A DNA stretch of 64,000 bases. Source: Flavobacteriales bacterium. Its GTDB lineage: Bacteria; Bacteroidota; Bacteroidia; Flavobacteriales_D; Crocinitomicaceae. Below, piece after piece: positions 3,859-24,337 of this stretch. Position numbers and translations under genes: made by a program. Every line of letters starts with the position of its first letter. Within the stretch, counting starts at the first letter, position 1. The stretch is from NCBI GenBank assembly GCA_947475095.1, contig CANJLG010000008.1, forward strand, positions 21,001 through 85,000. The letters run 5' to 3'. Under the pieces are notes generated by a model. It had not been told where the DNA came from and ran no database searches. It was given only the letters and a program-made list of their open reading frames with translations.

Positions 3859-6800
3859 CTACTCTTTAATAACCTTTGTTAAATTAGTTTCGCCATTCTG
3901 ATCTAATTTTATTAAATAAGATCCCCGAGCGAATGAAGAGAAGTCAAGCATTATTTCCGTTTGATTTTTAACCTGATCGGTAAATAATACCCTTCCATCC
4001 ATGGTTAAAATGGAGATTGTAGCAGAAATCGGCATATTAAACATTCCGTAGACCTCGCTTTGCGTTGGGTTGGGATAGTAGGAAAGTTTAAATAAATCTT
4101 CTTCATAAATCCCCAAACAAGGGTCTAAGACCACCACGGTGCTACCCGATTCTGTACAGCCATTTAATTCTCCTGTTACAGTGTAAGTTCCTGCTTGGGT
4201 GATTGAAGTTGAGGTGCCAGAAGTGCCATTGCTCCATAAAAATGAAGTAGCGTTACCCGCGGCTGTCAATTGGAGAGGCAAATTATAGTCGCAAACTGTT
4301 GTATCACTCACTAAGAAAATTGTCGGATTTGGATTAACCTCAACAGTAAATGCCGATGACCCTTCACAATTGTTGGTGTCTATTCCCACAACAGACAAGG
4401 TTATTGTAGATGCTGGCTGGAAATATGTTCCATTGAACTGACCTATATTCCAGGTATAGTTCGCTGCACCATTCGCTTGAAGAAGAATGGAGTCGCCGGC
4501 ACAAATCGTTTGGTTTACACCAGCAGAAATAGTAGGTAAAGCATTAACCGTTACAAACAAATTATCTTGATCTTGACATCCGTAAGCGTTTGTTCCTGTT
4601 ACAATATAGTTAGTGGTGTTGGTGGGAGTAAATGAAACGCCATTTACAGCACCATTATCCCATGAATACGTTTGAGCACCACTAGCAACAAGTACAATAT
4701 TCCCGCCTTCACAAAGTTCTATATCACTTCCAGCGAAAACAGTCGGAGAAGGATTGACAAACACTGTTATTTGATCAACATTCTGACATTGGTTTAAATC
4801 TACTCCGGTCAAGGTATAGGTCTGTGTAAGTTGTGGAATAAATGGGGAATTATTAATTACACCATTAGTCCAAGAATAACTTGTTGCTCCTGAGCCCGTT
4901 AAAATTACCGAGTCTCCGAAACAAATTGTTAAATCATTTCCTGCAAAAACATTCGGTAATCCGAGCACATTTACAAGAACAACATCATTGCTAGAACATC
5001 CCGTAGAAGAATTCGTGCCCGTTACAAAATAACTAGTGGAAGATAGGTTTGTTCCAGTTTGAACAGTTAAAGAAGCGCCCGTTGCCCCATTATTCCACAC
5101 ATAGTTTGTTGCTCCCGTAGCTGTAAAAGTTACACTTGAGCCTCCACAAACCGTTTGATCAACACCCGCTGAAACAATTGGAAGCGAATTTACAGTCACC
5201 GTTGTGGTTGCTGTGCCCGTACAGCCTTGTGAATTAGTGCCTGTAACTGTATACGTTGCTGTTGAGACAGGCGTAAAGGCTACTGCATTGGTCACACCAT
5301 TGCTCCAAGAATATGTTAAAGCACCACTTCCATTCAGGGTTACTGGTGAGCCTGCACATACTGATTGATTTATGCTGGCAGATACAGTTGGTGAAGGAAG
5401 GATTGTTATTACTTTAATCAAAGATGTGTCTGAACAGGCTAATGGCAAGCTATTTACCAAAACAGCATACGAACCCGCTTGTGCTGCTATTAATTGTGTA
5501 CTTGTCTCTCCAATTATTGGTTGGCCATTTAGTAACCATTGGTAAGAACTTCCTGTTGATCCTGGAATCGAAAGGGTTGTGCTCGCCCCAACACAAATAG
5601 AGTTGGCAGCAGCGGTAACAACGGCACCTGCTGCTGTAGCACAAGTATTTACTTGATAGATAGATAGGGTTGAGCTAACCTCGTTTGCCAAAATCACAAT
5701 ATCGTTGCCATTCGGCGAAATCGCTGCGGGGATGCTAACAATTCCCTCTGCGCCTAAATCTGGCCCGCTCAACGTTGTTGATCTATTATTCCGATAGGCA
5801 ACATAAACTGGTGATAAAGGGTTCTCTACATTGAAAACCATGACGCCACCAATCCTTTCTAATGCTAGAAAAACATACGGCTTTCCATTGATTGTCTGAA
5901 AATATATTCCTTCGATCTCAGGGCCTTTATCATCGCTTCTGTTTTTTAAAGATGGTGTGCCAGTAGAATTTGACGCATTAAAAATAGCGGCGAAAGTTGG
6001 ATGGTTAGCTATTATTTGCTCGATTAAATCCTTCGAATCATAAACAAGAGCGCCTGTTGTAGCGTTTCGAATACTAAAAGACCTTCCACTCATAACATGC
6101 AATTCGTCATAATCGCCATCGCCGTCTGTATCTCCTGAATATTTTAAGGCACTAAGTCTACCCAGAAACTTGCTGTTTTTAAGTATGCTTGCATCTGGAA
6201 AGGCTACCGCATCCAAGTTTGCAAATGTAGTTGAATTGATTCTATTAGCATCTACTACAGTCCCAAACTCGCGCGAATCACCTTCATTGGCTGTGAAAAT
6301 ATACCCTTGTCCTCCTATGGTTCCAAAGCTAAGTGCATCAGGCATATAAGCTCCTTTGATTGGCAGGTCTCCAGTAATTAAGATCGCGCCACTTTGATCA
6401 GAGGCGTCTAAGGCGTTATTCGATCCAGTTCCATATGGGCTATAGCCCAAAGCAGCTAGGCTGATTATCGTATTATTTGTAAGGTCAATCGTCAAAAGTG
6501 CATTTGCTTCTTGAATTCCCACGTAGGCTTTTGTGTTATCGTCCGAAATGGTGATGTATTCTGGCTCTAAATCCTGTGCTACAGTCGCACTTGTTGAGAA
6601 CACACGAATTCCTTGTGCAATCAATGTGGACTGCTGTCCATTATAGGATGTTAATCCTATTGTAGTCACATTCGCATTTGTTAGATTAGCAATTCCAGGT
6701 GTTAAATCTACAATGGAAACAGATCCCTCAGGGTCAACCGTATACGCTGCATTTGGCTCTCCTTCATTCGCGGTGAGAATTTTAGTATAGTTTTTATTAA

Positions 6801-8187
6801 AGGTGATCATATCTGGCATAGCACCAACCGTCACTTGACTCAAGAAGTTGCCATTATAATCCAAAAACACGACTGAACCATTAAGTTGTGGGTTGATGTT
6901 TTCTATTGCCAATGCAACGATGCTGTCATGCGCAACAACCGAGTTAATGTTCCCATAAGGAGTAGTAGAAATCGACGTTATTAACACCGGTAGAGCGGGA
7001 TTGGCAAAATTAACAATGTCTAATTTTGCAGCAATGCTATTTGCAATAAACAAACGGTCAACATCTTCGTCAAATGCAACTATTTCAGCGGAATTCGTTC
7101 CTGCAGTACCGTTAGAAAAGCTCGATAAAAGAGTTAAGTTTAATGCATTCGTTGGCGAAGGGGCTTGGTAATCATTGTCTTTAATGAAAATGATTTGGTA
7201 ATTCTCCGTTGTTGATATTCTTGTATTGGTTCCTGATAGTATTTTTACAACAATTCGTTCTGCTTTTTCAGGTAATAAGTCGTCAATAATTGTAATTACA
7301 TGATTGGTAGTGCCATTCGTGTTGGCTGGTATTGTTACTGTATTGGTCCATGTAAAATCTACATTGTCGGTCGCGTTTGAATAAACAGAGAAACCTAGGT
7401 TTAAGGTTACTGGGCTGGCATTTGCATTCGCAATTAATATCGGAACGTTAACCGTCCCAACATTTTCAGCTACTTGAATAAAATTGTTGGCGGCAGCAAT
7501 GGATGTGTTAGCTCCTCCATCTACTTTTACATTGTCAAATCGCCAAGTGCCTCCGCTTGCAATTGTGCTTGTTAATACTGTTTGTCTAAACTCTCCTGTA
7601 GCCTGATAGTGTGCCGCAAGAATTCTAACGGCAAAATTTGGATTGTTATTCGCTGCTAGTATGGATACGAAATCTACTGAAATTCTTCTGTATTGATCAC
7701 CAACACCGTTGTTTTGAAAACGACCTCCATCAAGAACACCGTTACAATAAGTCGTGTTTTGGTCCGTCATCACAAAGTCTGTCCAAGCAAGACCATCAGT
7801 TGTATATTTAACTCTCACAGTATTTGCCGATGTACTAGACCAGCGTTGGTCCCAGGTAAATTTTATGTTTTGATAGCCAACAGTTGAGACATTATATTGA
7901 ACACCGTTGGATTCATTTGCTAATCCTGGAGCGGCAGTAAAAGCCCAGGCTCCTGGATTTAGTCCGTTTTGAGCTCCACAGCCATTATTTATTATCGGGT
8001 CCATGCCTGTTGCAGCTGCAGCAACAGTAAGTGTCCCCACTATAGAAGAGGTGCCCACGCCTAAATCAGCATTGTAAGTAGTTGGGGAACCAACTATTGT
8101 GTTGTAGTTCCAAAGTGCAATCTGAGATTGGGCAACCAATGTTGATAAAAAAATGCCTGTAAAAGAAAAGAGTAGTTTTGAAATCAT
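3859..8187 (-). CDS. 1442-aa secreted multidomain surface protein, T9SS cargo: N-terminal beta-sandwich region, Calx-beta-like module, choice-of-anchor-I-like beta-propeller region, about 7 tandem Cys-containing Ig-like repeats, type A T9SS C-terminal sorting domain
   Basis: Signal peptide MISKLLFSFTGIFLSTLVAQSQ. Calx-beta-like stretch VGTVNVPILIANANASPVTLNLGFS...ITIIDD. Propeller-like motifs LEPEYITISDDNTKAYV, DTDGDGDYDELHV, GPEIEGIYF...ERIGGVMVF. C-terminus YYPNPTQSEVY...LTMDGRVLF...GSYLIKL matches the Por_Secre_tail pattern. Confidence 0.8.
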   Translation of the reverse strand: MISKLLFSFTGIFLSTLVAQSQIALWNYNTIVGSPTTYNADLGVGTSSIVGTLTVAAAATGMDPIINNGCGAQNGLNPGAWAFTAAPGLANESNGVQYNVSTVGYQNIKFTWDQRWSSTSANTVRVKYTTDGLAWTDFVMTDQNTTYCNGVLDGGRFQNNGVGDQYRRISVDFVSILAANNNPNFAVRILAAHYQATGEFRQTVLTSTIASGGTWRFDNVKVDGGANTSIAAANNFIQVAENVGTVNVPILIANANASPVTLNLGFSVYSNATDNVDFTWTNTVTIPANTNGTTNHVITIIDDLLPEKAERIVVKILSGTNTRISTTENYQIIFIKDNDYQAPSPTNALNLTLLSSFSNGTAGTNSAEIVAFDEDVDRLFIANSIAAKLDIVNFANPALPVLITSISTTPYGNINSVVAHDSIVALAIENINPQLNGSVVFLDYNGNFLSQVTVGAMPDMITFNKNYTKILTANEGEPNAAYTVDPEGSVSIVDLTPGIANLTNANVTTIGLTSYNGQQSTLIAQGIRVFSTSATVAQDLEPEYITISDDNTKAYVGIQEANALLTIDLTNNTIISLAALGYSPYGTGSNNALDASDQSGAILITGDLPIKGAYMPDALSFGTIGGQGYIFTANEGDSREFGTVVDANRINSTTFANLDAVAFPDASILKNSKFLGRLSALKYSGDTDGDGDYDELHVMSGRSFSIRNATTGALVYDSKDLIEQIIANHPTFAAIFNASNSTGTPSLKNRSDDKGPEIEGIYFQTINGKPYVFLALERIGGVMVFNVENPLSPVYVAYRNNRSTTLSGPDLGAEGIVSIPAAISPNGNDIVILANEVSSTLSIYQVNTCATAAGAVVTAAANSICVGASTTLSIPGSTGSSYQWLLNGQPIIGETSTQLIAAQAGSYAVLVNSLPLACSDTSLIKVITILPSPTVSASINQSVCAGSPVTLNGSGALTYSWSNGVTNAVAFTPVSTATYTVTGTNSQGCTGTATTTVTVNSLPIVSAGVDQTVCGGSSVTFTATGATNYVWNNGATGASLTVQTGTNLSSTSYFVTGTNSSTGCSSNDVVLVNVLGLPNVFAGNDLTICFGDSVILTGSGATSYSWTNGVINNSPFIPQLTQTYTLTGVDLNQCQNVDQITVFVNPSPTVFAGSDIELCEGGNIVLVASGAQTYSWDNGAVNGVSFTPTNTTNYIVTGTNAYGCQDQDNLFVTVNALPTISAGVNQTICAGDSILLQANGAANYTWNIGQFNGTYFQPASTITLSVVGIDTNNCEGSSAFTVEVNPNPTIFLVSDTTVCDYNLPLQLTAAGNATSFLWSNGTSGTSTSITQAGTYTVTGELNGCTESGSTVVVLDPCLGIYEEDLFKLSYYPNPTQSEVYGMFNMPISATISILTMDGRVLFTDQVKNQTEIMLDFSSFARGSYLIKLDQNGETNLTKVIKE
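4115..5650 (-). repeat. tandem coding repeats, about 7 units of about 70-75 aa (Ig-like, two conserved Cys per unit), inside the 1442-aa gene
   Basis: Recurring pattern (V/I/L)C.G.S..L.A.GA..Y.W.NG.....F.P..T..Y.V.G.....C.....V.V...P read from the translation. Coordinates are approximate. Confidence 0.75.
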
Positions 8188-11917: not shown

Positions 11918-11997
11918 ATCTCAACTTCCGTTCGGAAGTGTTCGATGGTCTTCGGCACGAACCCAGGGTTCTCATCCCATCTTCCTTCATTTCATTG

Positions 11998-12082
11998 CGG
12001 AGAGAGGGGGATTCGAACCCCCGTTACGTTACCGTAAACACGCTTTCCAAGCGTGCGCGTTCAGCCACTCTGCCACCTCTCC
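11998..12082 (-). tRNA. tRNA-Ser (anticodon GGA), class II with long variable arm
   Basis: Minus strand reads GGAGAGGTGGCAGAGTGGCTGAACGCGCACGCTTGGAAAGCGTGTTTACGGTAACGTAACGGGGGTTCGAATCCCCCTCTCTCCG. Features: 7-bp acceptor stem, anticodon stem CACGC/GCGTG with loop TTGGAAA, variable-arm hairpin TTACG-GTAA-CGTAA, T arm GGGGG-TTCGAAT-CCCCC. CCA is not encoded. Confidence 0.92.
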
Positions 12083-12812: not shown

Positions 12813-15263
12813 TCAGCGAATAATAGTAAAGAACCCAGAATAAGTAAGGTCTTTATCTATTATGGTAAGCATCAAGAAATAAGTGCCGTCTGTCAAACCT
12901 TCACCGCTCCAATCATTTTGATAATTATTCTTTTCAAGAATTAAATTTCCCCAACGATTGAAAATTAATAATTGATTATTAGGATAAAAATCTAGGTATT
13001 CAAACGCGAGAAATTCATTTTTTCCATCATTGTTTGGTGTAATTACATTGGGAATTTTTACTTCAGCAGGGATTACTTGTATAATGGAACAGACTGAATC
13101 CAAGCATCCGATTTGATCTTGGACAAGCAGGCATAATTCGTAATTTCCTGGATTAAAATAGGTGTTTCCCCATTGACTAGAAAGGCTGGTTAAGGTATCG
13201 TTCCAAGTCCAAAACCAAGAAGAAATGCTAGATGCTGGAGACACCGAGTTGTCTATAAACAAAGCGGGAACACCCACAATTACAGGCAAGGGGTCTATTG
13301 TAAATGCAGCGCTAGGATTGCTATGCACAGTAATGTTAAATTGAGTTGTGTCGGAGGTGCAACCATTTCCTTGAGCATAGGCTGAAAAATTAAGTGAAAT
13401 GGGAGCGCCGGAAGTGGTAATAGGCGTTGAGAAATCCCCTTGGCCACTGAGTCCTTCGCCAAAAAAATAAGCTGTGCCATTGCTAAAACAAGACGCTAAA
13501 CCCACATTAATCGGGGGGCCACTACAAACAATAGAATCATATTGCAACTCCACATTCGTAGCTGGCTTAATGGGAACGGTCTCGTTGGGTAAGCCTGTAA
13601 TTACAGTCCCGCAAGCGTCAGTAATCACTGGTGGTGGAATGGTTAAAAGGGTATAGCTTGAATCGCAATATACTGGGCAATTTGGAATGGTTAGTAAAAA
13701 GTCGTGGCTAGTTGAACCAACATTACACCCCACATTGGTACCAATAGTTACTGTTTGAGTCGTCCAGGGGTGGGAAAAGGTATACGGTGCCACACCATAG
13801 CGAGCATAAGCCCTTACCCCGATTTCACAAGAATTTGAGCAAATTGGTGTTTGTGGCGCATACCACAGAGAGCCGTAAGACTCTGGTGTTTTGCCATATA
13901 TTACCACTTGGAAGGGCCACGCTGTGGTAAAGGGATCGTAACGGATGTAGAAAGGATTGCAGTTGCCGTTGAATGCATTTCTCCCTAAATGAAACCGCAC
14001 ATAGATCTGAGTTGGGGTACACGATTCCGGCACACAGCACACCAAGGGAGCCATTACGTTAAAGCTGTCTAAGTAAGCCGTTCCTGCAAGCTGAGCCGTT
14101 GAGCCCACAACCGTAAACGTTTGAGAAGCACCACAAGTTGTGCTAAAATACATTGAGCCTTGACTCATCGTTGCGCCACTGAATGGATCAGCATAGAAAC
14201 TAGAAGATACATAAAGGCCGGTTACCGTAACACCGCCCGGTATGGTGGCAAGCAAACTATCCACTTGATAAGCCGGCATAAAACAAGAAGGGATTTGGCC
14301 TCCAACCCACGTTGATGTTGGTCCGCCAATAAGCGGGTCAATGGTGATGGGATATGTCCGTTCCGAAGCATTCATCCACGCAGTAGGAATAGCGACAATC
14401 AGGCGATAATTATTCGGTGACAAGTATTCGAACGCCATTAATCCTTTTGAGTAGTTCATGCCCGCGTCATAGGCAATTGGCGCGTAAATTTTACCGCAGG
14501 GGGCACCTGTTTTTTTATCGATAACCAATATGTCTGCATCCATTGAAAAACCATCAATAAATAAAATTCCACGCTCCCCTCGCATTTCAATTTCACCGCC
14601 TGTAGAACTCGAATTTGTTTGATATTTCAATTCAAATCCAAGCGGAAGCGTAATTGTTTCTTCCGAAACAAAATATGCCGCAGGTGAAATGTTTTCAAGT
14701 GTATGGATAAGAAGGTTGCTTTTGATGCGGTCCTCCGAGAAAATTAATTGTTGAGTATAATTATCAATCTGTATCTGGCAACCCGTAGATGAAACATCTT
14801 GATTTGACAGGGTGATTTTGGATAGTGAATGGCCATTCACACTTCTATTATTCCCCAATACCATTTGTGCGCCCTCTTGATTTAGGGATACTGCATAAGA
14901 ACCATCGGTGAATAAATAAGTAGGAAAAGATTGTGATAGAGCTGACCAAGTTCCTGTGCCTTCTTCCTTTGTTAAGCTTGAATTTATAGGGTTTAGTCGC
15001 CCTGCTTTATCCAAATAATGAATTGGTTTTTTACTGAATATGTTCTTCGTATCTCCTTTTCGATTAATGAATGAAGATGATACAAGTGTTCGCTTAGCTT
15101 CTTCCTCGAACCACGTATTCGTATCTTGTTCGATTGCTTTTTTTGATTCATTATTTGGCGCCAATGACATTGTCTTACCCACCAACTGCCCCATTACACT
15201 AAAGCTTAGGCAAGCAAAGGTTATAATAATGCTAAACTTAAAAGCAAACTGTTTAGTAATCAT
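12813..15263 (-). CDS. 816-aa secreted Cys-rich protein with PKD-like domain and type B T9SS (gliding-motility-associated) C-terminal domain
   Basis: Signal peptide MITKQFAFKFSIIITFACLSFSVMGQ. PKD-like segment AAFTIDPLPVIVGVPALFIDNSVS...WFWTWND. C-terminus IPNVITPNNDGKNEF...IFNRWGNLI...WSGEGLTDGTYFLMLTI is the CHU_C/type B sorting pattern. Confidence 0.75.
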   Translation of the reverse strand: MITKQFAFKFSIIITFACLSFSVMGQLVGKTMSLAPNNESKKAIEQDTNTWFEEEAKRTLVSSSFINRKGDTKNIFSKKPIHYLDKAGRLNPINSSLTKEEGTGTWSALSQSFPTYLFTDGSYAVSLNQEGAQMVLGNNRSVNGHSLSKITLSNQDVSSTGCQIQIDNYTQQLIFSEDRIKSNLLIHTLENISPAAYFVSEETITLPLGFELKYQTNSSSTGGEIEMRGERGILFIDGFSMDADILVIDKKTGAPCGKIYAPIAYDAGMNYSKGLMAFEYLSPNNYRLIVAIPTAWMNASERTYPITIDPLIGGPTSTWVGGQIPSCFMPAYQVDSLLATIPGGVTVTGLYVSSSFYADPFSGATMSQGSMYFSTTCGASQTFTVVGSTAQLAGTAYLDSFNVMAPLVCCVPESCTPTQIYVRFHLGRNAFNGNCNPFYIRYDPFTTAWPFQVVIYGKTPESYGSLWYAPQTPICSNSCEIGVRAYARYGVAPYTFSHPWTTQTVTIGTNVGCNVGSTSHDFLLTIPNCPVYCDSSYTLLTIPPPVITDACGTVITGLPNETVPIKPATNVELQYDSIVCSGPPINVGLASCFSNGTAYFFGEGLSGQGDFSTPITTSGAPISLNFSAYAQGNGCTSDTTQFNITVHSNPSAAFTIDPLPVIVGVPALFIDNSVSPASSISSWFWTWNDTLTSLSSQWGNTYFNPGNYELCLLVQDQIGCLDSVCSIIQVIPAEVKIPNVITPNNDGKNEFLAFEYLDFYPNNQLLIFNRWGNLILEKNNYQNDWSGEGLTDGTYFLMLTIIDKDLTYSGFFTIIR

Positions 15264-15721
15264 TTTATTTTTCTTATTTCTTTATGCATTATTTCCCCAC
15301 CGCTCGTGGCTGTTTTTATCCCTAAATATATCGCAAAAATGGCTAATAATGCAAGTCCTATTGAAAGTGCATTCGAACGTTTGTTTTTTTTCCAAGAAAG
15401 CCACATAGCAAGCAAGGAAATGGCTGATAACAAGTAGGTAACCAGTGAAAAAGTTTCTGCGTGTTCTTCGTGTTGATGAATAAACGTGCCGCTGGTTTTT
15501 TCTAATCCCTCCACTATTTCCTCTGCACCCTCACCAGTATTCATAGAAAGGAATGCTGCTATCCCGGCAAATACAAAGAGAGAGAGGGCCAATCGTTTCA
15601 CTAAACCATTCTTGAACAGAAACCCAAATAACAACAAGAAACAACCCATTATTAGTAAAAAAATGGGGAGGTGATTGATAACTAGGTGAGAATAAGGTGA
15701 CTTTAATGCATTTTCTAACAT
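15260..15721 (-). CDS. small integral membrane protein (about 4 TM helices), function unknown
   Basis: Hydrophobic segments plus an acidic/His loop GEGAEEIVEGLEKTSGTFIHQHEEHAE. Its TGA stop overlaps the ATG of the downstream 816-aa gene (ATGA). Confidence 0.6.
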   Translation of the reverse strand: MLENALKSPYSHLVINHLPIFLLIMGCFLLLFGFLFKNGLVKRLALSLFVFAGIAAFLSMNTGEGAEEIVEGLEKTSGTFIHQHEEHAETFSLVTYLLSAISLLAMWLSWKKNKRSNALSIGLALLAIFAIYLGIKTATSGGEIMHKEIRKIK

Positions 15722-15892
15722 CCTTCTTTTTGTGTACTAATGTAAGAAATTCTATTTAAATACCATATTTTTTACCTTTTTCTCCTTTCTTTTTCCTTAA
15801 TTTGTGTGCCTATAAATCATTAATATGTTTTATTAAAGTAGTAATTCAATTAAGAAAAGCCCTCTCGCAACCATATATTTTATAGATTAATT

Positions 15893-17356
15893 ATGATGAA
15901 TTTCGACTTCTTATTTACCAATTTATTTGATAAAAATATTGCCTTTTATATTGATGAAAAAGAATACACTTATTTAGAATTTAAACAGACCGTGTTTTCT
16001 ATATCAAATAGAATAAATGAACATAACATAGAGGGCCAAAACATTGGCGTTTATCTTTCTGATGACCTTTATTCCTATGCTGCATTTATTGCTATTTGGT
16101 TAACTAAAAATGCATATGTCCCTATTCATCCTTCCTATCCGGATAACAGAAGGATTGATATAATCAATCAAGCGGAAATTAATTATGTGCTTGTAACTGA
16201 TTCCCACCCTATTTGTGTCGTTGGCCCTACCAGTATTAACATTTCTTCGCTTCATCCTGCCGAAAAACTCTCCTTTCATTATATTGAGCATATCAAAAGT
16301 GACTTAATGTATATTCTTTTTACCTCAGGCAGCACGGGGGCCCCAAAAGGGGTCCAAATTAACTGTGGAAATTTATGTTCTTTTATGGACCATCTGACTT
16401 CTGTCAAGATGCCACTTACAGTTGGGGATCGGTTTCTTCAAATGTTTGAACTAACCTTTGATTTATCTGTCGTGTCATTTTTATTTCCCTTACAACTTGG
16501 GGGAACCGTATACCATGTTGGCACCAACCAAGTAAAATATCTAGAAATATACCGCCTTCTTGAAGAATATGCTATTAATTATGCCATCATTGTCCCTTCT
16601 GTTTTGGCTATGTTAAGGCCATACTTTGAAGATATTGATTTACCAAACTTAAAAGTTGTTGCATTAAGCGGGGAGGCCGTTCCGTTAAAATTAACCGAAG
16701 AATTTCAATTGTGCTGTCCAAACGCCTCTTTTTTTAATTACTATGGGCCAACAGAATGCACTATTTTTTGTACAGCATACGCTATCCCGAGAACTGAAAT
16801 AAAGTCCGCTAACGGAATTGTTTCTATAGGAAAGCCAACTCTAAATAGCGTATATAAATTATATGAATTGCCTAAAGATGGGGAAGAACTGAATGCTAGC
16901 AGCGAACTGCACATCGGAGGCGAACAAGTTTCCATTGGTTATGTGCAAAATGAAGAAATGAATAAAACGTTATTCTATAAAAATGGCGAAACGCCATATT
17001 ACAATACTGGCGATTTAGTCTTTTGCGATGACATGGGCTTTTTGTATTACTTAGGGAGAAAAGATCAACAAGTAAAAATTCAAGGATATCGTATCGAACT
17101 AATGGAGGTTGAGCACCTGTGCAATAAGGCATTAGAAGCAACCTCGGTGGTTGTGGCTATTAAAAATGAAAAAGGATTTGACGAGCTAATTCTTTTTGTG
17201 AAAGAGACCGAAATCAATACAATTACAGAGAGGCTTAATCAGTATTTGCCTAAATATATGGTCCCAAGCAGGACAATTCAAATGAAAGACTTCCCGATGA
17301 ATGAAAATGGTAAGTTGGATAGAAAATCACTAAGAAACTCACTACTTAACTCATAA
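15893..17356 (+). CDS. stand-alone adenylation enzyme, DltA-like amino acid--carrier protein ligase
   Basis: A-domain core motifs: LMYILFTSGSTGAPKGV (A3), TFDLSV (A4 with Asp), NYYGPTECT (A5), YNTGDL (A7), GRKDQQVKIQGYRIELMEVE (A8), NGKLDRKSL (A10). About 490 aa, with no condensation or thiolation domain. Confidence 0.8.
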   Translation: MMNFDFLFTNLFDKNIAFYIDEKEYTYLEFKQTVFSISNRINEHNIEGQNIGVYLSDDLYSYAAFIAIWLTKNAYVPIHPSYPDNRRIDIINQAEINYVLVTDSHPICVVGPTSINISSLHPAEKLSFHYIEHIKSDLMYILFTSGSTGAPKGVQINCGNLCSFMDHLTSVKMPLTVGDRFLQMFELTFDLSVVSFLFPLQLGGTVYHVGTNQVKYLEIYRLLEEYAINYAIIVPSVLAMLRPYFEDIDLPNLKVVALSGEAVPLKLTEEFQLCCPNASFFNYYGPTECTIFCTAYAIPRTEIKSANGIVSIGKPTLNSVYKLYELPKDGEELNASSELHIGGEQVSIGYVQNEEMNKTLFYKNGETPYYNTGDLVFCDDMGFLYYLGRKDQQVKIQGYRIELMEVEHLCNKALEATSVVVAIKNEKGFDELILFVKETEINTITERLNQYLPKYMVPSRTIQMKDFPMNENGKLDRKSLRNSLLNS

Positions 17357-17357
17357 C

Positions 17358-18008
17358 ATGTATACGATTAGAGAGGCCAAGAAAGAAGATCAAGCATTTC
17401 TTATCTTGTCAATTATTGAAGCCGATAAAAGTTCTACTAATATTTGTTCCTATTGCAAACTCCTCGAAATTGAGGAATTGGAATTTAAACAATTCCTCCA
17501 TGAAATTTTTGAAGAGGAAATCACCGGATTTGAATTCTCCGTCGAAGCGTTTGTGGTAGTGGAATATGATGGTAAGCCAATAGCAGCAAGCGCTTCTTGG
17601 ATTGAGTCGGAGGAAGGTCTCCCATCGTGGCAACTAAGGATGGTTGCCTTGAGAACAGTGCTCCCTGCCATTCACATAACTAATCTGATGGCAAAATCGG
17701 CCATTTGTAATACAATTAATATTAAAAGAAGTGAAGGAACCCTGCAAATTGAGTCTGTTTTTATTAGCTCTGAACACCGCGGTAAGGAATTATTAAAAAA
17801 AATGATTGACTTTCATATAAAATTAAGGTCCAATAACACCAATAACATTGCCTCCATGGAATTATTAACCTATAATTCGAACCTATTGGCCGAAAAAGCG
17901 TACACGAAAATCGGATTTAAAAAAATAGAATACACAACTTCGTCGCACGAGGAAATAAAACAATTTTACCCATCTGATGGGATGACTCGTTGGCAAAAAA
18001 TTATTTAA
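17358..18008 (+). CDS. GNAT-like acyltransferase (tentative)
   Basis: 216 aa. VFISSEHRGKELLKKMIDF resembles the GNAT motif A (R/Q-x-x-G-x-G/A) CoA-binding loop, and the C-terminal AYTKIGFKK resembles motif B. Sits 1 nt after the ligase stop. Confidence 0.45.
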   Translation: MYTIREAKKEDQAFLILSIIEADKSSTNICSYCKLLEIEELEFKQFLHEIFEEEITGFEFSVEAFVVVEYDGKPIAASASWIESEEGLPSWQLRMVALRTVLPAIHITNLMAKSAICNTINIKRSEGTLQIESVFISSEHRGKELLKKMIDFHIKLRSNNTNNIASMELLTYNSNLLAEKAYTKIGFKKIEYTTSSHEEIKQFYPSDGMTRWQKII

Positions 18009-18009
18009 C

Positions 18010-18243
18010 ATGGAAATTAAAACTAAATTACAAGAAGTTTTTCGTGACGTATTTCAAGATGAATCGTTGACAATTTTACCCGAAATGACTGCTGGAGATG
18101 TTGATAAATGGGATAGTATAACTCATTTGATAATGATTAGTAAAGTAGAGGAAGTTTTTAATGTCTCTTTCCGCTTAAAAGAATTAATCAAACTCAAAAA
18201 TGTTGGCGATTTAATTGCTCTTTTAAAAGAAAAAACCGAGTAA
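18010..18243 (+). CDS. small acyl/aminoacyl carrier protein (DltC-like role)
   Basis: 77 aa, acidic, four-helix-bundle size. Candidate phosphopantetheine site GDVDKWDSITHLIMISKVEEVF. Confidence 0.7.
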   Translation: MEIKTKLQEVFRDVFQDESLTILPEMTAGDVDKWDSITHLIMISKVEEVFNVSFRLKELIKLKNVGDLIALLKEKTE

Positions 18244-19743
18244 ATGAATAGACAAAGCGTCCTTTTTATATTGAGTTTGTCTGTTTTTTTAATCTCTTTA
18301 TCTTTTCTTTGGCCGAGCGAAGGAGTTATGATTGGCAAACTAAATCTCGTATTTATAGATGGAGGTGGGTTGTTTAGCAAAGAAAAAAATAAATTCAAAG
18401 ATTCCGGTCTTATAAAGACTTCTTTGTCTGCTAATATTAATTCGAAAGACTATCTTAAATTAATAGAACATAAAGATCCTAGCGCAGCATCCTTGCGCCA
18501 GAAATTAGATAGTCTTCGTGATAGATTAAATTTAAAACTGACTGAATCAGATTATAAAGAATCAATATTCTTAATTAATCCAGTGAAAAATAACACAAGT
18601 CCATTGGATAATTTTTTTAAGTCTTTAGTGGATATTAACCTTGTTGGGTCTGGAGTAATGCGTGTTGGGCACTATGGAGACTCTCAAATTGAAGGCGGTC
18701 GTATGACTAACACCTTGAGAGATTTGTTTCAGGGGTATTTTGGTGGTGGCGGTGTGGGCTATGTGCCCTTGGACGACATAACCAGTCCTGTCTCCTTCTC
18801 AAGAACGGTCTCGGGTAATTGGACTCGCTTCGCAGCAAGTAAAGGCCGGCCTAAAGGGGGGAGCTTGGGGCCGGGAGGGCTAGCATTCAAATATAACTCA
18901 GGACAAAACCAAACTAAAAAAATAACGGATGAATCAGGCGCGGCGAATTTTACCTCATGGGCTTCTGGAAATGTCACTTTGAATTTATCAAAATCATATT
19001 CCAACATGATGATTTGGTATGGTTACGGACAAACAAACTCGACCCTTAGCGTTTTTTCCGGAAGCAACAAAATTGGGGAGGTCAAGTTAGAAGATAATAG
19101 CGTTTTTAATGCTGTTAAGGTGCCATTATCTACTTCCGCTACTAATATACAATTGCGTTTTAGTGGACCATCTCCCTTTTTATATGGCGCCACTTTTGAT
19201 GAATCGAAGGGGGTGCAATTTGATAATTATGGGGTGAGGGGGCATTCGGGAGAGGGATTCCTAACTATAAATCAAGACGATCTTTCTGGCATGTTTCAGA
19301 AAATAAATAATAAACTGGCCATCGTTCAGTTTGGGGGTAATGTAACTCCTTATTTAAAGACCGAGGCATCCCTCAAAAAAATGAAGGGTATTTATCAAAA
19401 TATTTATCTTCGGTTTAAGAAAGCGTTGCCCGAAGGAAGTGTATTAATAGTAAGTGTTAATGATGTTTCTAGATTTATAAAAGGGGGGTATGAATCATAT
19501 CCAAATATTAGTTCTCTAAGATATATTCAAAGAGAATTAGCAATCGAAAATAATTGTGCATTCTTTGATTTGTTTCAATTTATGGGCGGAGAATCCTCTA
19601 TTAATGTTTGGAGCGAAGCAAATTTAGGCGCTAAGGATGGCCATTTTTCAACAACTGGTAGAGATATTGTTGCTAAAGAACTCTTTAAAGCTTTAATGTA
19701 CGAATTCAACAATTACAAAACTAGGCATGTTATTAAAGAATAA
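18244..19743 (+). CDS. N-terminally membrane-anchored SGNH/GDSL-like acyltransferase or esterase (DltD/PatB/AlgJ-like role)
   Basis: Single N-terminal TM FILSLSVFLISLSFLW. Block I GHYGDSQIEGG. C-terminal Asp/His region GAKDGHFSTTG. Confidence 0.6.
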   Translation: MNRQSVLFILSLSVFLISLSFLWPSEGVMIGKLNLVFIDGGGLFSKEKNKFKDSGLIKTSLSANINSKDYLKLIEHKDPSAASLRQKLDSLRDRLNLKLTESDYKESIFLINPVKNNTSPLDNFFKSLVDINLVGSGVMRVGHYGDSQIEGGRMTNTLRDLFQGYFGGGGVGYVPLDDITSPVSFSRTVSGNWTRFAASKGRPKGGSLGPGGLAFKYNSGQNQTKKITDESGAANFTSWASGNVTLNLSKSYSNMMIWYGYGQTNSTLSVFSGSNKIGEVKLEDNSVFNAVKVPLSTSATNIQLRFSGPSPFLYGATFDESKGVQFDNYGVRGHSGEGFLTINQDDLSGMFQKINNKLAIVQFGGNVTPYLKTEASLKKMKGIYQNIYLRFKKALPEGSVLIVSVNDVSRFIKGGYESYPNISSLRYIQRELAIENNCAFFDLFQFMGGESSINVWSEANLGAKDGHFSTTGRDIVAKELFKALMYEFNNYKTRHVIKE

Positions 19744-21319
19744 ATTAATTTTACTCTTCTTTCCTTTAACTTTAAGTGTCTGCTTTGCTCAACAGCAAGT
19801 GTCTGATACTGCATCCATAAATAAACTGGTTAAATATTCCGTTTCCCCCAATTTTGTTGACTTCAAAACAAATTATTTTGAATGGCAAAACTCTTCATCT
19901 GTTGGGGGTTTTTATGATAAATTGAAAAAAGGAGATAATGTAACAATCTTACATATCGGCGATTCTCACCTGCAATTCGATTTAGGAGCAGGAACGACAA
20001 GAAAAAGACTTCAGCAAGTATTTGGCAGTAGGGGGAGAGGGCTCGTTTTTCCTTATGCTGCTGCGGGAACGCATTCTACTTATGACTATTCAAGCGCTTC
20101 TTTTGGAAACTGGAGAAGCAATAAAAATGTCAGTAAGAACATTAGCTATAAACTTGGCGTCTCTGGTATCACTATAAATACACGAGATTCCCTTGCTGGA
20201 TTTTCGTTTTCTTTCTACAACAGTGACCTTCGAGAAGAAAAAATTAATTTAGCCGTCCTATTTTTTAAAAATACTGATTCTTCTTTTAATATTAAATACC
20301 GATTAAACAAAAATGATGATTGGATTTTTGTCAACGTTCATAATTCAACTAACAAAAATTGTGTGCAAATTCCTCTCGCAGCCTCTAAATTTGATCGTTA
20401 CTTTGAGTTACGCTGTGTTAAATCAGACTCTACACAAAAAGAATTTGAGTGTTCAGGTGTTTCTTTTGAATCAACAGAACAAAAAGGCGTTTTGTATCAT
20501 AGCGTTGGAATTAATGGGGCGCGAATTTTGAGCTTTTTGAAGCAGGAATTAAACGACGAGCAACTAAAAACTCTTAATCCCGATATTATTATTTTTGATC
20601 TGGCAGCAAATGATTTGGCTTTTGGGCCTTTTGATTCTATTGGTCTTAGCAAATCCCTTCTTCGTTCTTTAAACGTTATTCGAAGCTCATTGCCTAATGC
20701 TTCCATATTAATAGCAAATATTCAAGACATTAGTGTAAAAGAAAGGTCAGTAATCAATGGTTTATATTATTCTGCTTTTTTGAGAAAATTCTCAAAGACA
20801 AATCAGATTGCTTTTTATGATTACTATGACATTGCTGGGGGCAAAGGCTCAATAAATAAATGGCTTAAAGCCGGGCTTTGTAAATCGGACAAATGTCATT
20901 TATCTAAAAGTGGTTACATTTTGAAAGGAGAACTCTTTGCCAATGCTCTACTTAACTCTTTTGGAAATTATTTAATGCATCCAACTGATTCGTTATTGTT
21001 AATACGTAAGCCGATTGTCATCGAAATTATAATTAAAGATTCTCTGAATACTTCTGTCCTCGTTAGTAAAGAAACACCTATAAAAAAAGATGTTGTCGCA
21101 AAAGAGAAGGCGCCAGTAAAGCCTGTTACAGCAATCGTTAAGCCTGTTCCGGCACCCGTAAAACCCAAAAAACCAGAGCCGAAATACTATGTTGTAAAAA
21201 AAGGTGATAACTTATCACGAATAGCGAATAAATACAAGACGTCCGTAAAGGCACTTCAGCTTAAAAATAAATTAAAAACTGATTTTTTACAAATTGGTCA
21301 AAAGCTACTAATACCATGA
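19727..21319 (+). CDS. secreted SGNH/GDSL-like protein with Pro/Lys-rich linker and C-terminal LysM domain
   Basis: Signal peptide LILLFFPLTLSVCFAQQ. Block I ILHIGDSHLQFD. Block V SDKCHLSKSG (DxxH). Linker KAPVKPVTAIVKPVPAPVKPKKPEPK. LysM YYVVKKGDNLSRIANKYKTSVKALQLKNKL...IGQKLLIP. Confidence 0.7.
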   Translation: MLLKNKLILLFFPLTLSVCFAQQQVSDTASINKLVKYSVSPNFVDFKTNYFEWQNSSSVGGFYDKLKKGDNVTILHIGDSHLQFDLGAGTTRKRLQQVFGSRGRGLVFPYAAAGTHSTYDYSSASFGNWRSNKNVSKNISYKLGVSGITINTRDSLAGFSFSFYNSDLREEKINLAVLFFKNTDSSFNIKYRLNKNDDWIFVNVHNSTNKNCVQIPLAASKFDRYFELRCVKSDSTQKEFECSGVSFESTEQKGVLYHSVGINGARILSFLKQELNDEQLKTLNPDIIIFDLAANDLAFGPFDSIGLSKSLLRSLNVIRSSLPNASILIANIQDISVKERSVINGLYYSAFLRKFSKTNQIAFYDYYDIAGGKGSINKWLKAGLCKSDKCHLSKSGYILKGELFANALLNSFGNYLMHPTDSLLLIRKPIVIEIIIKDSLNTSVLVSKETPIKKDVVAKEKAPVKPVTAIVKPVPAPVKPKKPEPKYYVVKKGDNLSRIANKYKTSVKALQLKNKLKTDFLQIGQKLLIP

Positions 21320-22797
21320 ATATTGACTTCTTAATTTCAAGTTTAATGTATGACCCGAAAAATCCGATGTTATTTCAATCGGTATTATTTTTTGGTTCGT
21401 TTAGTATTTTCTACCTGATTTATTCCTTTTTTAATAACGAAGTAAAGGTTAGAAATGCTTTGCTTTTGGCATTTAGTTTATTCTTTTACTATAAAATAAG
21501 TGGCGGATTTGTTTTGGCGCTTATATTTATGGCTAGTGTAGACTATCTAGTTGCTAGAAATCTCCCTCATGCTAAAAGCGAAAGAAAAAAAATACTCCTG
21601 CTTTCCCTATCTCTTTTTATTAATGTTGGGGGATTACTCTTTTTTAAATACACTTATTTTTTCCTTGATGTATATAATTCCGTTTCAGGATCAACGGTTT
21701 CTTTGGCCATGAAAATAATTCAACCCATCGGAATAAGTTATTTCGTTTTCAAAAGCTTGGGCTATGTTCTTGATGTTAAACGGGAAATGATTGAAGAGCC
21801 TGAAAAAAATTATGCTAACTATTTATTGTACGTATCATTTTTTCCAAATATTCTTGCGGGACCAATATCAAAGGCTCGAGACCTCCTGCCTAAATTTAAA
21901 GAAAAAAGTGTGGTTGATAAAAAAATCATTAACGCTGCGGTATTTATGATAATAATTGGCCTTATTAAAAAAATTGCGATTGCAGATTATTTAGCTGCTA
22001 ATATGGTCGGGCGAGTGTTTGAAAGCCCTCAGTTTTTTTCGGGGGTTGACTTATTTATGGCTTGCTATGGAGGACTCATTCAATTGTTTTTTGATTTTTC
22101 AGGATATACAGACATTGTTGTAGGGCTTGCCTTATTGATGGGGTTTCAGATTAAAGGTAATTTTAATCAGCCATTTAAAGCAAAAAACATCACTGACTTT
22201 TGGAGGCGATGGCACATTTCTCTATATGAATGGTTGTCTGAATATATTTACCAACCCCTTGCTTTTATTTGGCGCAAGCAGAAATTGTTAGGCACCTTAA
22301 TGGCGGTTATTATCACCTTTTTAATTTCTGGTATTTGGCACGGCCCTAATTGGGTTTTTATTGTTTGGGGTAGCTTACATGGGCTGATGATTTGTTGGGA
22401 TGTGCTAACATCGAAATACAGAAGTAAACTCGCTACTTTAGGTGGGAAATATTATTCTTTTTTTAGTGTGTTCCTCACCTTTCACTTTATTGTTTTTTCA
22501 GCCGTCTTATTAAAATCTCCCTCTTTTAACTATACGATCGATTACTACAGCCAGCTGTTGACAACATTCGACCCCAAGATGCTCATTAAATGGTTTGAAA
22601 TATATTCATGGCCATTTGGGGTGATGCTTATTGGCCTCGCCCTGCAGTTCCTGCCTCTAAATTTCTATTCCAAACTTGAAAATGGTTTTGTAAAAACACC
22701 GCTAATTCTTTCGTCTATAATCCTTGTAATTATTATTTTTTCGCTTTACCAACTTTCGTACATGGAAGCGATGCCCTTTTTATATATTGTTTATTAG
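21316..22797 (+). CDS. MBOAT family membrane-bound O-acyltransferase (DltB/AlgI/PatA-like)
   Basis: Polytopic, 493 aa. FWRRWHISLYEWL and ISGIWHGPNW (conserved His) are typical AlgI/DltB signatures. ATGA overlap with the preceding gene. Confidence 0.8.
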   Translation: MNIDFLISSLMYDPKNPMLFQSVLFFGSFSIFYLIYSFFNNEVKVRNALLLAFSLFFYYKISGGFVLALIFMASVDYLVARNLPHAKSERKKILLLSLSLFINVGGLLFFKYTYFFLDVYNSVSGSTVSLAMKIIQPIGISYFVFKSLGYVLDVKREMIEEPEKNYANYLLYVSFFPNILAGPISKARDLLPKFKEKSVVDKKIINAAVFMIIIGLIKKIAIADYLAANMVGRVFESPQFFSGVDLFMACYGGLIQLFFDFSGYTDIVVGLALLMGFQIKGNFNQPFKAKNITDFWRRWHISLYEWLSEYIYQPLAFIWRKQKLLGTLMAVIITFLISGIWHGPNWVFIVWGSLHGLMICWDVLTSKYRSKLATLGGKYYSFFSVFLTFHFIVFSAVLLKSPSFNYTIDYYSQLLTTFDPKMLIKWFEIYSWPFGVMLIGLALQFLPLNFYSKLENGFVKTPLILSSIILVIIIFSLYQLSYMEAMPFLYIVY

Positions 22798-22888: not shown

Positions 22889-24337
22889 ATGAAACGCATT
22901 AAAATTAAGCATGTTTTAAGTAGTGATGGGAAAGAGCTCATTGGACAACGCATTACCGTTAAAGGCTGGGTAAGAGCTTTTAGAAGCAATCGATTTATTC
23001 AAATTAATGATGGCTCATGTTTGGCTAATATTCAAGCAGTGATTGATTTCGAAAAATACGATGGCGACATTATAAAGCAAATTACCACTGCTGCGGCAGT
23101 TTCTGTTTCTGGCTTATTAATCGCCTCTATCGGATCGGAGCAATCCCTTGAATTACAAGTGGAGGAAATAGAAATTCTTGGTGCTGCTCATCCTGATGAT
23201 GTGCAAAAAACAATCTTGCAACCAAAAAAACATAGCTTAGAATTATTAAGAGAACAGGCCCATTTAAGGTTTCGAACCAATACCTTTAGTGCTGTTTTTA
23301 GAATTCGCCATGCCGTAGCTTATGCTATACATCATTATTTTCACAGTAATGGATTTTTTTACCTCCACACACCCATTATTACAGGTTCCGATGCTGAGGG
23401 CGCAGGAGAGATGTTTAGAGTTTCTACTCTTGATCCTAAATCCCCCCCGCTAAACGAAGCTGGAGAAGTTGATTATAAACAAGACTTTTTTGGCAAGCCT
23501 GTTAACCTTACTGTTTCTGGACAATTAGAGGCAGAGCTTGCTGCCCTAGCACTTGGACAAGTATATACTTTTGGACCTACCTTTCGTGCCGAAAACTCAA
23601 ATACTTCGCGGCACCTTGCGGAATTTTGGATGATTGAACCTGAGGTGGCATTCAATGACCTGACTGATAACATGGACCTCACCGAAGATTTTCTGAAGTA
23701 TCTTTGCTCTTTTGTTGTTGAAAATTGCAAAGAGGATCTTTCCTTCCTCAACCTACGTGAACAACAAGAACAAAGTCAGAAACCCCTTAACGAACGTAAC
23801 GAGTTGAGCTTAGTTGAACGCTTGACCTTTGTTATTGAAAATCCTTTCAAAAGGCTTACATACTCAGAGGCAATTGAGGTGCTTTTAAATTCAAACCACC
23901 ACAAAAAGAAAAAATTTCAATATCCTATTGCGTGGGGAATTGACCTTCAAAGTGAACACGAACGTTATTTAGTTGAAAAAGAATTTAAGTGTCCTGTTAT
24001 ACTTTCTAATTATCCCGCTGAGATAAAAGCGTTTTACATGCGTCAAAATGACGACAATAAAACCGTTGCTGCTATGGATGTTTTATTTCCAGGTATTGGA
24101 GAAATCGTCGGTGGCTCTCAGCGCGAAGAACGATATGATGTTTTATTGGAGAAATGCAAGGCGTTTAAAATTCCGGAAGAGGAGCTGTGGTGGTACCTAC
24201 AAACGCGAAAATTAGGCACGGTACCCCATGCTGGTTTTGGCCTAGGATTTGAGCGCATGATTATGTTTGTCACCGGGATGACCAACATTAGAGATGTTAT
24301 TCCATTTCCGAGGACCCCATTAAATGCTTCTTTTTAA
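22889..24337 (+). CDS. asnS: asparagine--tRNA ligase
   Basis: Class II motifs FRAENSNTSRHLAEFWMIEPE and GFGLGFERM, plus an N-terminal OB-fold anticodon-binding region. Confidence 0.9.
   Translation: MKRIKIKHVLSSDGKELIGQRITVKGWVRAFRSNRFIQINDGSCLANIQAVIDFEKYDGDIIKQITTAAAVSVSGLLIASIGSEQSLELQVEEIEILGAAHPDDVQKTILQPKKHSLELLREQAHLRFRTNTFSAVFRIRHAVAYAIHHYFHSNGFFYLHTPIITGSDAEGAGEMFRVSTLDPKSPPLNEAGEVDYKQDFFGKPVNLTVSGQLEAELAALALGQVYTFGPTFRAENSNTSRHLAEFWMIEPEVAFNDLTDNMDLTEDFLKYLCSFVVENCKEDLSFLNLREQQEQSQKPLNERNELSLVERLTFVIENPFKRLTYSEAIEVLLNSNHHKKKKFQYPIAWGIDLQSEHERYLVEKEFKCPVILSNYPAEIKAFYMRQNDDNKTVAAMDVLFPGIGEIVGGSQREERYDVLLEKCKAFKIPEEELWWYLQTRKLGTVPHAGFGLGFERMIMFVTGMTNIRDVIPFPRTPLNASF

Follow-up and report, generated by a model that had tools for sequence, protein, structure and literature searches.

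We propose with moderate confidence that six adjacent genes of a Flavobacteriales bacterium from the Crocinitomicaceae form a module which O-acylates peptidoglycan, and which presents the acyl group on a carrier protein instead of coenzyme A (CoA). The genes lie at positions 15893-22797 of a stretch of 64,000 nucleotides from contig CANJLG010000008.1, the whole of which is called the window here. They encode a ligase related to DltA, a GNAT protein, a small carrier protein, two SGNH proteins, and an acyltransferase of the MBOAT family. The description that best suits its sequences is that of a PatA/Ape1-type cluster for the O-acylation of peptidoglycan, with an acquired Dlt-like, carrier-based acyl supply, complemented by a GNAT. 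An earlier note on this DNA had described the operon as Dlt-like. For the cytoplasmic half, with its DltA-like ligase and its carrier, this description stands, but it does not hold for the envelope half, as indicated by the Ape1 folds of the SGNH proteins and the PatA-type shuttle of the MBOAT.

The open reading frame (ORF) listing gave six tightly packed genes on the + strand, at exactly the coordinates of the earlier note. These are the ligase (15893-17356, 487 aa), the GNAT (17358-18008, 216 aa), the carrier protein (18010-18243, 77 aa), a membrane-anchored SGNH protein (18244-19743, 499 aa), a secreted SGNH-LysM protein (19727-21319, 530 aa), and the MBOAT (21316-22797, 493 aa). Their junctions of +1, +1, 0, -17, and -4 nt, in gene order, were confirmed as well, and every motif previously quoted was located in its place. 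To the left lies, as had been said, a divergent gene, which encodes a small membrane protein (15260-15721, minus strand) and is separated from the ligase gene by a spacer of 171 bp (15722-15892) with no DltX-like ORF inside. The operon promoter is presumably located in this spacer. A sigma-70 scan, whose model leaves Bacteroidota-type promoters outside, returned only weak promoter matches, no more than in shuffled sequence, and a terminator scan gave scattered terminator-like matches, none of them at an operon boundary.

The two SGNH proteins place the envelope half of the operon. Both are under the cut-off of the Pfam family Lipase_GDSL_2, yet they have an SGNH fold in their AlphaFold models, which were built on 59 (anchored) and 64 (secreted) homologues and reached a confidence (predicted local distance difference test, pLDDT) of 90.4 and 87.4, respectively. 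In Foldseek, both models matched Ape1 of Campylobacter jejuni (8gld, 8gkd) and Neisseria meningitidis (4k3u), with E values of 1e-20 to 1e-23 (1e-21 to 1e-23 for the anchored protein) and target TM-scores of 0.75-0.82. The next matches, CE2 esterases, followed at E values of about 1e-6. Sequence searches of both proteins agree with the Ape1 assignment. Furthermore, a beta-sandwich is inserted between SGNH blocks I and II in both proteins, as in Ape1. An identity as DltD, PatB, or AlgX/AlgJ was considered and rejected, all of them being absent from the top 50 Foldseek matches. The PatB entries 7TJB and 8TLB were not among the top 50 structural matches of either model, DltD gave no Pfam match at E <= 0.01, and neither Pfam nor the top 50 Foldseek matches contained AlgX or AlgJ for either protein. 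The assumption that the SGNH proteins are of Dlt type had to be given up in this comparison.

The anchored SGNH protein has a transmembrane helix at residues 3-22 and a disordered tether at 47-71. This topology resembles that of PatB, which has a single N-terminal helix plus tether (PMC12148441), and that of DltD, a single-pass membrane protein (PMC11035591). Its block I GDS is found at 145-147, a GGN at 364-366, and the catalytic histidine at His467; the block I motif reads GDSQ, versus GDS(H/F) in the Ape1 family. In block V, the anchored protein and its close relatives have D-G-H (465-467), with one spacer residue, and more distant members keep D-x-x-H. The secreted SGNH protein has a signal peptide, a GDSH at 78-81, and a D388-x-x-H391 (DKCH); a disordered linker rich in Pro and Lys (433-480) leads to its C-terminal LysM domain (residues 486-530, nt 21182-21316). 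The LysM match to PF01476 covers residues 488-530 with 58.2 bits, versus a cut-off of 20.9, and of the 120 homologues listed, nearly all have between one and three LysM copies. This strengthens the earlier view that the LysM domain points to peptidoglycan. Neither SGNH family varies in its catalytic Ser and His, and the catalytic Asp is invariant in the LysM-protein family and nearly so in the anchored family. We propose that the anchored protein is the putative acyltransferase partner of the MBOAT, and that the secreted one could be a peptidoglycan-bound esterase or a second transferase.

The MBOAT matches its Pfam family with 99 bits. Its best NCBIfam match is DltB (TIGR04091), with 183.5 bits and thus under the cut-off of 375. 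Residues 127-397 align to DltB and keep both conserved histidines, His300 in FWRRWHISL (295-303) and His342 in WHGPNW (341-346), which bears out the earlier description as a polytopic MBOAT. Past the DltB-homologous core, the protein continues for about 95 residues, which include two additional hydrophobic segments and close with FLYIVY (488-493, nt 22777-22794), preceded by a proline (PFLYIVY). Tyr490 is the predicted acyl acceptor of this tail. The same kind of ending, PFxYxx[FY], is found in every full-length MBOAT homologue collected (about 60). PatA has been shown experimentally to auto-acetylate a tyrosine in a C-terminal hexapeptide, FXYXXF (Anderson 2025, PMC12148441). In non-Dlt MBOATs this shuttle motif is carried on two extra transmembrane helices and replaces DltX; these systems are stated to have no carrier and to use acyl-CoA together with the fused shuttle, whereas Dlt combines a carrier with a separate DltX (PMC12148441).

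The absence of DltX from the operon is explained by the fusion of the shuttle hexapeptide to the MBOAT. No DltX-like ORF (15-90 aa, ending in F.Y..F) was found between 10 and 28 kb, which extends the earlier observation that none lies upstream. However, as a mark of oddity the missing DltX loses its weight, since the PatA-type fused shuttle accounts for it. A hidden DltX was likewise discarded, both by the empty small-ORF search and by the presence of the motif in cis on the MBOAT. On sequence grounds, the operon pairs a PatA-like fused shuttle with a Dlt-like carrier protein, a pairing that is not listed in PMC12148441.

The ligase supplies the link to Dlt. It has an AMP-binding match of 165 bits, and its top NCBIfam match is DltA (TIGR01734), with 276.7 bits under a cut-off of 559.85, followed by the amino-acid adenylation domain TIGR01733, with 268.9 bits under a cut-off of 317.4. 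These scores characterize it as a DltA relative and not an equivalog. The best PDB matches are adenylation (A) domains of nonribosomal peptide synthetases (NRPS) and DltA. The core motifs TSGSTGAPKG (144-153), FDLSV (189-193), NYYGPTE (282-288), YNTGD (370-374), and GKLDRK (473-478) are present, and the core set is full, with A3, A4 (including the Asp235 equivalent), A5, A7, A8, and A10 (the Lys517 equivalent). Profile scores and motifs thus agree with the earlier note in that the ligase is DltA-like, amino-acid-activating, and keeps the Asp that contacts the alpha-amino group. A fatty-acyl or aryl-acid ligase was considered too, but the FadD and MenE models score far below the DltA, adenylation, and NRPS models, and the Asp235 equivalent is kept.

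Ten positions of the substrate pocket were extracted, with the register checked on the PDB sequences of Bacillus subtilis and Bacillus cereus DltA. The window ligase reads DLVSASYIFK, within a family pattern of D-L-[VMWL]-S-[LAGCQM]-[CS]-[VFYLI]-I-[FYV]-K. The commonest code among the ligases of the LysM clusters, DLMSLCVIFK, is identical at seven of the ten positions to that of B. cereus DltA (DLMSLCTVAK; DLMSMCTVAK in B. subtilis), and at six, plus conservative changes, to that of the Gly-activating second module of LgrA (DIASLCIIYK). The alpha-amino-binding Asp and the catalytic Lys are invariant among the DltA-like members of the family. Where position 5 is small (A/G) and position 6 is Ser, position 7 is aromatic (F/Y), and these compensating changes suggest that the pocket volume is conserved. 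We infer a glycine- or alanine-sized alpha-amino acid as substrate, possibly D-alanine (D-Ala). Since no hydrophobic segment was found in the ligase, the GNAT, or the carrier, all three are cytoplasmic.

The carrier scores 19.3 bits against PP-binding, slightly short of the cut-off of 20.8. Its predicted phosphopantetheine attachment site is Ser36 in DKWDSITH (nt 18115-18117). All of 32 homologues keep this serine, which lines up with the phosphopantetheine serines of DltC and AcpP, whose sequences served to set the register. In the NCBIfam search, the DltC model did not match the carrier, and only weak generic acyl carrier protein (ACP) models did (at most 24.8 bits). The motif WDS[IL]xH of the carrier stands against LDSxG in DltC. 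The protein remains a dedicated carrier, as had been claimed, but does not belong to the DltC family.

The third cytoplasmic protein passes two Pfam GNAT models, PF13673 and PF00583, both over their cut-offs, in line with its first description as GNAT-like; PF00583 also matches all 20 aligned homologues. Conserved residues are W81, E83, Q130, R141, N175, and Y182. The family comprises 354 clusters among 1.84 billion representatives, and most members have 213-230 aa. Fusions exist with either neighbour, namely ligase-GNAT proteins of 712-735 aa and GNAT-carrier proteins of 298-304 aa (P0415 and P0418, with PP-binding at 227-298). A further protein of 440 aa, P0370, has two tandem copies of this GNAT family. 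Among the surveyed loci, each one with a DltA-like ligase also has the GNAT. PDB matches of the window GNAT were generic N-acetyltransferases only, and the profile matches were N-alpha- and polyamine N-acetyltransferases. Together with the conserved Glu83 and Tyr182, these profile matches fit an N-acetylation of the carrier-bound aminoacyl group; most likely, the GNAT would acetylate the alpha-amino group of the carrier-bound species.

An alignment of the SGNH-LysM protein was scanned against 185,579 species genomes and retrieved at least 591 relatives. The best 80 of these are almost all from metagenome-assembled genomes (MAGs), mostly of Bacteroidota, with a few of Ignavibacteriaceae. The six window proteins were searched against the ORFs of the relatives' loci. 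Ligase, GNAT, carrier, SGNH, SGNH-LysM, and MBOAT are found together in at least 18 loci (group a). Eleven of these have six separate genes in the same order, two (L003 and L018) have ligase and GNAT fused, and one is rearranged; in the remainder, contig ends or gaps interrupt the locus. At least 18 independent loci, together with the gene fusions, speak against a chance arrangement. This survey, which drew mostly on Bacteroidota MAGs, bears out the reading as one compact unit and shows its genes to be co-conserved.

Smaller sets occur as well. Groups (b) to (d) have the carrier, both SGNH genes, and the MBOAT, and are discussed below with the identity of the acyl group. About 35 loci (group e) have only SGNH, SGNH without LysM, and MBOAT. 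In two of them (L050, 7656-9548; L068, 6835-8727), the gene directly upstream encodes a bona fide acetyl-CoA synthetase (975 bits, over the cut-off), as if for a local donor supply. In a neighbour-joining tree of the MBOATs, the LysM/carrier groups (a-d) stand apart from group (e). Finally, in at least eight loci the SGNH-LysM gene is alone (group f: L005, L006, L010, L029, L030, L031, L042, and L045) and lacks any MBOAT, carrier, or further SGNH gene in its vicinity. To this group belongs a Crocinitomicaceae MAG, which has the nearest genome relative of the window SGNH-LysM protein (44% identity). As the protein is found alone in other genomes, it could be an autonomous hydrolase.

The MBOAT carries a candidate signature of the donor type. 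DltC docks on the horizontal helix HC of DltB, through Met302, Val305, Ile306, Met309, and Lys312 (PMC11035591). This helix aligns to residues 300-315, approximately, of the window MBOAT (YIYQPLAFIWRKQKLLG). In a first comparison of 60 MBOATs, all 25 carrier-adjacent ones had W[LF]xEY[LV][FY]xP[LM][SA][FY]xxR...G, without GGN and with a DltB-like length, and all 29 carrier-less ones of clade 2 had WLRDYLYI[PS]LGGN-RKGK, which is two residues shorter. The signature was then applied as a prediction to unrelated polysaccharide loci of four cultured Flavobacteriaceae, with several MBOATs each. There, all MBOATs directly downstream of a carrier gene were of the carrier type (5/5, one of them behind an FkbH-like loader plus carrier), and all those without a neighbouring carrier had IPLGG[NS] (4/4). 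The overall tally is 30/30 for carrier-adjacent versus 33/33 for carrier-less MBOATs, among sequences that are phylogenetically related, so that the contrasts within a locus are the stronger evidence. This signature lends indirect but specific support to the carrier as the physiological donor of the window MBOAT.

The polysaccharide loci, from Aquimarina sp. AD10 (L002, 2000-21080), Flavivirga abyssicola (L085, 8001-17485), Gaetbulibacter sp. 4G1 (L086, 8001-17488), and Sabulilitoribacter multivorans (L087, 8001-16648), have two to three MBOAT genes, each followed by a gene for a protein of about 305-320 aa that neither Pfam nor NCBIfam places in a family. In every locus, a DltA-like ligase together with a carrier supplies one of the MBOATs. 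A second MBOAT in L087 is supplied by the FkbH-like loader and a carrier, and in L002 a third one lies behind a CapK-like adenylating enzyme. This suggests that several different acyl groups are placed on one polysaccharide. Directly after the ligase-carrier-MBOAT genes, L085 (14542-17485) and L086 (14541-17488) have three consecutive FemAB-like genes (PF13480, Acetyltransf_6), the products of which might lengthen an amino acid bound as an ester to a short peptide.

Known systems share one or the other half of the operon. The order SGNH-SGNH-MBOAT, in the window and in group (e), is the one published for the O-acetyl-peptidoglycan clusters of Bacteroides and Porphyromonas, ape1b-ape1c-pat, which have two Ape1 genes and, in the Bacteroides type, no PatB; in the two Bacteroides species tested, 27-69% of the peptidoglycan was O-acetylated (Weadge 2005, PMC1199599). 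The duplicated SGNH component, formerly seen as an oddity, is therefore an arrangement already published (PMC1199599). The likeness is one of gene order, as given in the text of that paper. With the O-acetyl-peptidoglycan clusters taken together, PatA/PatB/Ape1 of Neisseria and Campylobacter as well as ape1b-ape1c-pat, the operon shares an MBOAT with two conserved histidines and a C-terminal FxYxxF acyl-tyrosine shuttle, Ape1-fold SGNH partners with an inserted beta-sandwich, and, in our interpretation, the targeting of peptidoglycan; with those of Bacteroidota, it also shares the pair of Ape1-family genes that precedes the MBOAT. Unlike these clusters, it encodes ligase, carrier, and GNAT as the likely acyl supply in place of acetyl-CoA, its MBOAT has a helix-HC segment without IPLGG[NS] and two residues longer, a PatB-type SGNH is missing, the secreted SGNH bears a LysM domain, and an amino acid, not acetate, is the probable acyl group.

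The features shared with Dlt are a free-standing ligase of the DltA type whose pocket code is very similar, a small carrier that would deliver the acyl group to the MBOAT, a helix-HC region of DltB-like length without GGN, and a predicted acyl-Tyr shuttle followed by an SGNH serine relay. In contrast to Dlt, the shuttle is fused to the MBOAT and there is no DltX, the gene order differs, a GNAT is embedded, two SGNH proteins of Ape1 fold and not of DltD fold are encoded, and the carrier is outside the DltC family. A DltA-like ligase and a carrier also aminoacylate a Gram-negative envelope component in AlmEFG of Vibrio cholerae (lipid A glycine), and the PDB matches of the ligase include the AlmE structure 4oxi. 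However, AlmG is an LpxL-type lipid A acyltransferase and not an MBOAT, and AlmEFG has no SGNH protein and modifies lipid A.

An MBOAT with a fused C-terminal shuttle and periplasmic SGNH-like transferases are also found in AlgI/AlgJ/AlgF/AlgX and WssH/WssI, for which an acyl-CoA donor and the lack of a carrier are reported (PMC12148441). Unlike in the operon, their partners are of AlgJ/AlgX fold and their acceptors are exopolysaccharides. The order ligase-GNAT-carrier and the fusions recall the A-(tailoring)-T initiation modules of NRPS and GNAT-ACP loading modules, such as that of CurA. In contrast to these NRPS and polyketide synthase modules, the operon proteins are free-standing, without condensation or ketosynthase partners, and their product would be passed to the MBOAT for export.

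In the mechanism that we propose, the DltA-like ligase would adenylate a small alpha-amino acid, of glycine or alanine size and possibly D-Ala, and load it onto the phosphopantetheine arm of the carrier, where the GNAT would act on it, most likely by acetylating its alpha-amino group. The carrier would then dock at the cytoplasmic face of the MBOAT, and the MBOAT would move the acyl group to the periplasmic side, onto the tyrosine in its C-terminal FLYIVY. From there, the anchored Ape1-fold SGNH protein would take the acyl group on its serine and pass it to the glycan, probably to O-6 of N-acetylmuramic acid. The secreted SGNH-LysM protein would sit on the peptidoglycan and trim the modification, or alternatively serve as a second transferase. 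The analysis shows the gene structure, the domain and fold identities, the conservation of the set with its fusions, catalytic residues, and LysM, the fused shuttle motif, and the carrier-type MBOAT segment; the acyl identity, its N-acetylation, the acceptor, and the question of which SGNH protein transfers and which hydrolyses are the parts of this mechanism that we infer. Peptidoglycan is favoured as the acceptor because the LysM domain is conserved, because group (e) has the gene order of O-acetyl-peptidoglycan clusters, and because no glycosyltransferase, flippase, or polysaccharide-export genes were found beside the operon among its window neighbours. A racemase is not encoded in the operon.

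Several observations weigh against this proposal, and most of them concern the acyl group. The window pocket has Ser in place of the D-Ala-selecting Cys, which helps DltA to exclude L-Ala, so that the substrate is not fixed by the sequence. In the window GNAT, the phosphate-binding loop reads RGKELL, a degenerate form (RGxGxx in the family; the acyl-CoA criterion is R/Q-x-x-G-x-G/A), and in several homologues it is canonical. Two complete loci (group b: L016 and L024) have GNAT and carrier, followed by SGNH, SGNH-LysM, and MBOAT, with no ligase within 7 kb. In three others (group c: L014, L022, and L026), consisting of carrier, SGNH, SGNH-LysM, and MBOAT, the carrier is the only cytoplasmic part. 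In four more (group d), SGNH, SGNH-LysM, and MBOAT are followed by a gene for an acetate-CoA-ligase-like enzyme (NF003313, 654 bits, under the cut-off of 729) and a carrier gene, with no DltA-like ligase and no GNAT (ligase-carrier stretches: L017, 9227-11108; L020, 13222-15107; L025, 13156-15123; L053, 13216-15120). L020 and L025 have an extra carrier upstream and hence two carriers each, and in group (d) the carrier may deliver acetate or another short acid. As groups (b) to (d) lack the DltA-like ligase, members of the family do not all transfer one and the same acyl group, and instead of N-acetylating, the GNAT could load the carrier. Moreover, in four complete LysM-type loci (L032, L034, L039, and L043) the MBOAT has the carrier-type segment and no adjacent carrier, which may in these genomes be encoded elsewhere. 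To our knowledge, O-aminoacyl peptidoglycan has not been reported. Some of these observations would suit a plain O-acetylation via the carrier, in which an acetyl or other short acyl group is transferred, the GNAT loads the carrier thiol from acetyl- or malonyl-CoA, and the ligase is auxiliary. The GNAT-carrier pairs without ligase, the GNAT-carrier fusions, and the four sister loci with the acetate-CoA-ligase-like enzyme and carrier in place of the DltA-like ligase are consistent with it, as is the carrier-less sister clade, which presumably uses acetyl-CoA and adjoins the bona fide acetyl-CoA synthetase in two loci. Yet it leaves unexplained why the DltA-like ligase never occurs without the GNAT in this system and is fused to it in several genomes, and why the alpha-amino-binding Asp and a DltA/Gly-type pocket are kept; Glu83, Tyr182, and the N-alpha- and polyamine N-acetyltransferase profile matches fit N-acetylation instead. 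We therefore consider a plain acetyl transfer rather improbable.

Other points bear on the envelope side of the carrier-fed peptidoglycan O-acylation proposed here. LysM domains bind, besides peptidoglycan, also chitin oligomers and other chitin-like glycans. Both SGNH proteins keep a Gly-containing block II, unlike PatB and OatA, and as they are alike in this block, the sequence does not tell the transferase from the esterase. Ape1c is described without a beta-rich insert (PMC1199599), which the secreted SGNH protein of the window has. The same machinery could serve a different acceptor, namely another envelope glycan that contains N-acetylglucosamine, be it a capsule, an exopolysaccharide, an O-antigen, or a chitin-like polymer, and closely related ligase-carrier-MBOAT trios do occur inside the polysaccharide loci of Aquimarina, Flavivirga, Gaetbulibacter, and Sabulilitoribacter. 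However, those loci use the different partner of about 305 aa and have neither an Ape1-fold pair nor LysM nor GNAT, polysaccharide genes do not neighbour the window operon, and the sole strong structural matches of both of its SGNH proteins are peptidoglycan O-acetylesterases. Another acceptor consequently seems unlikely to us. Hardly credible is a true Dlt system that would serve, in a diderm, to D-alanylate a polymer resembling teichoic acid, along the lines of the dlt-like loci reported from some Proteobacteria. The top NCBIfam matches of ligase and MBOAT are indeed DltA and DltB, and automatic pipelines name them so, their labels for the operon proteins being DltA, DltB, AlgI, or RimI-like. 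Both scores, though, are about half of the equivalog cut-offs (277 versus 560 and 184 versus 375), and with no DltC, DltD, or DltX family member found, four of five components of canonical Dlt fail the family tests. Teichoic acid is, in addition, not expected in this diderm host. The MBOAT bears a fused shuttle, too, which is placed on two transmembrane helices that DltB lacks (PMC12148441).

The chemistry of passing acyl groups on from an MBOAT to a tyrosine, to an SGNH serine, and to a glycan is already established, and what is new is the combination and the donor-type signature. A full-text literature search found no description of this architecture, in a comparison that left the bioinformatic survey of the 2023 DltX study outside. 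More tentatively, the peptidoglycan strands may be esterified by a small, probably N-acetylated amino acid, an undescribed modification, through the first recognised class of MBOATs with carrier donor and fused shuttle, in which the TPLxFxxR/IPLGGN segment switches between carrier and CoA donors. If so, the donor type of any bacterial MBOAT would be predictable from its sequence. Carrier plus fused shuttle is a third combination beside the two-way split of MBOAT/SGNH systems in PMC12148441. Such systems occur widely in Bacteroidota, be it beside Ape1 proteins of the peptidoglycan type or within polysaccharide loci. If our model holds, they would reflect an evolutionary route in which the module for export and transfer stays constant and the donor module, with DltA-like, acetate-ligase-like, or FkbH-like loaders, is swapped. 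A new modification of diderm peptidoglycan could also alter the sensitivity to lysozyme, lytic transglycosylases, and phage endolysins.

The genes around the operon are chromosomal housekeeping genes, namely pth, asnS, rpoN, glmS, ppk, cysS, and ispG. The start of asnS lies 91 nt past the MBOAT stop, and read-through transcription from the operon is conceivable. Just downstream, the start of rpoN overlaps the end of asnS by 14 nt (24324-24337). Besides, the window encodes three large secreted proteins with type IX secretion sorting domains, all on the minus strand: a CHU_C protein (12813-15263), a Por_Secre_tail protein with choice-of-anchor I (3859-8187), and a further Por_Secre_tail protein (51225-53564). 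Housekeeping genes and type IX secretion substrates together fit a Bacteroidota chromosome. In an Rfam scan, the sole RNA gene of the window was a tRNA-Ser(GGA) (11997-12082, minus strand). The Por_Secre_tail gene at 51225-53564 falls in the region where the GC content of the window is highest (0.467 at 52-54 kb).

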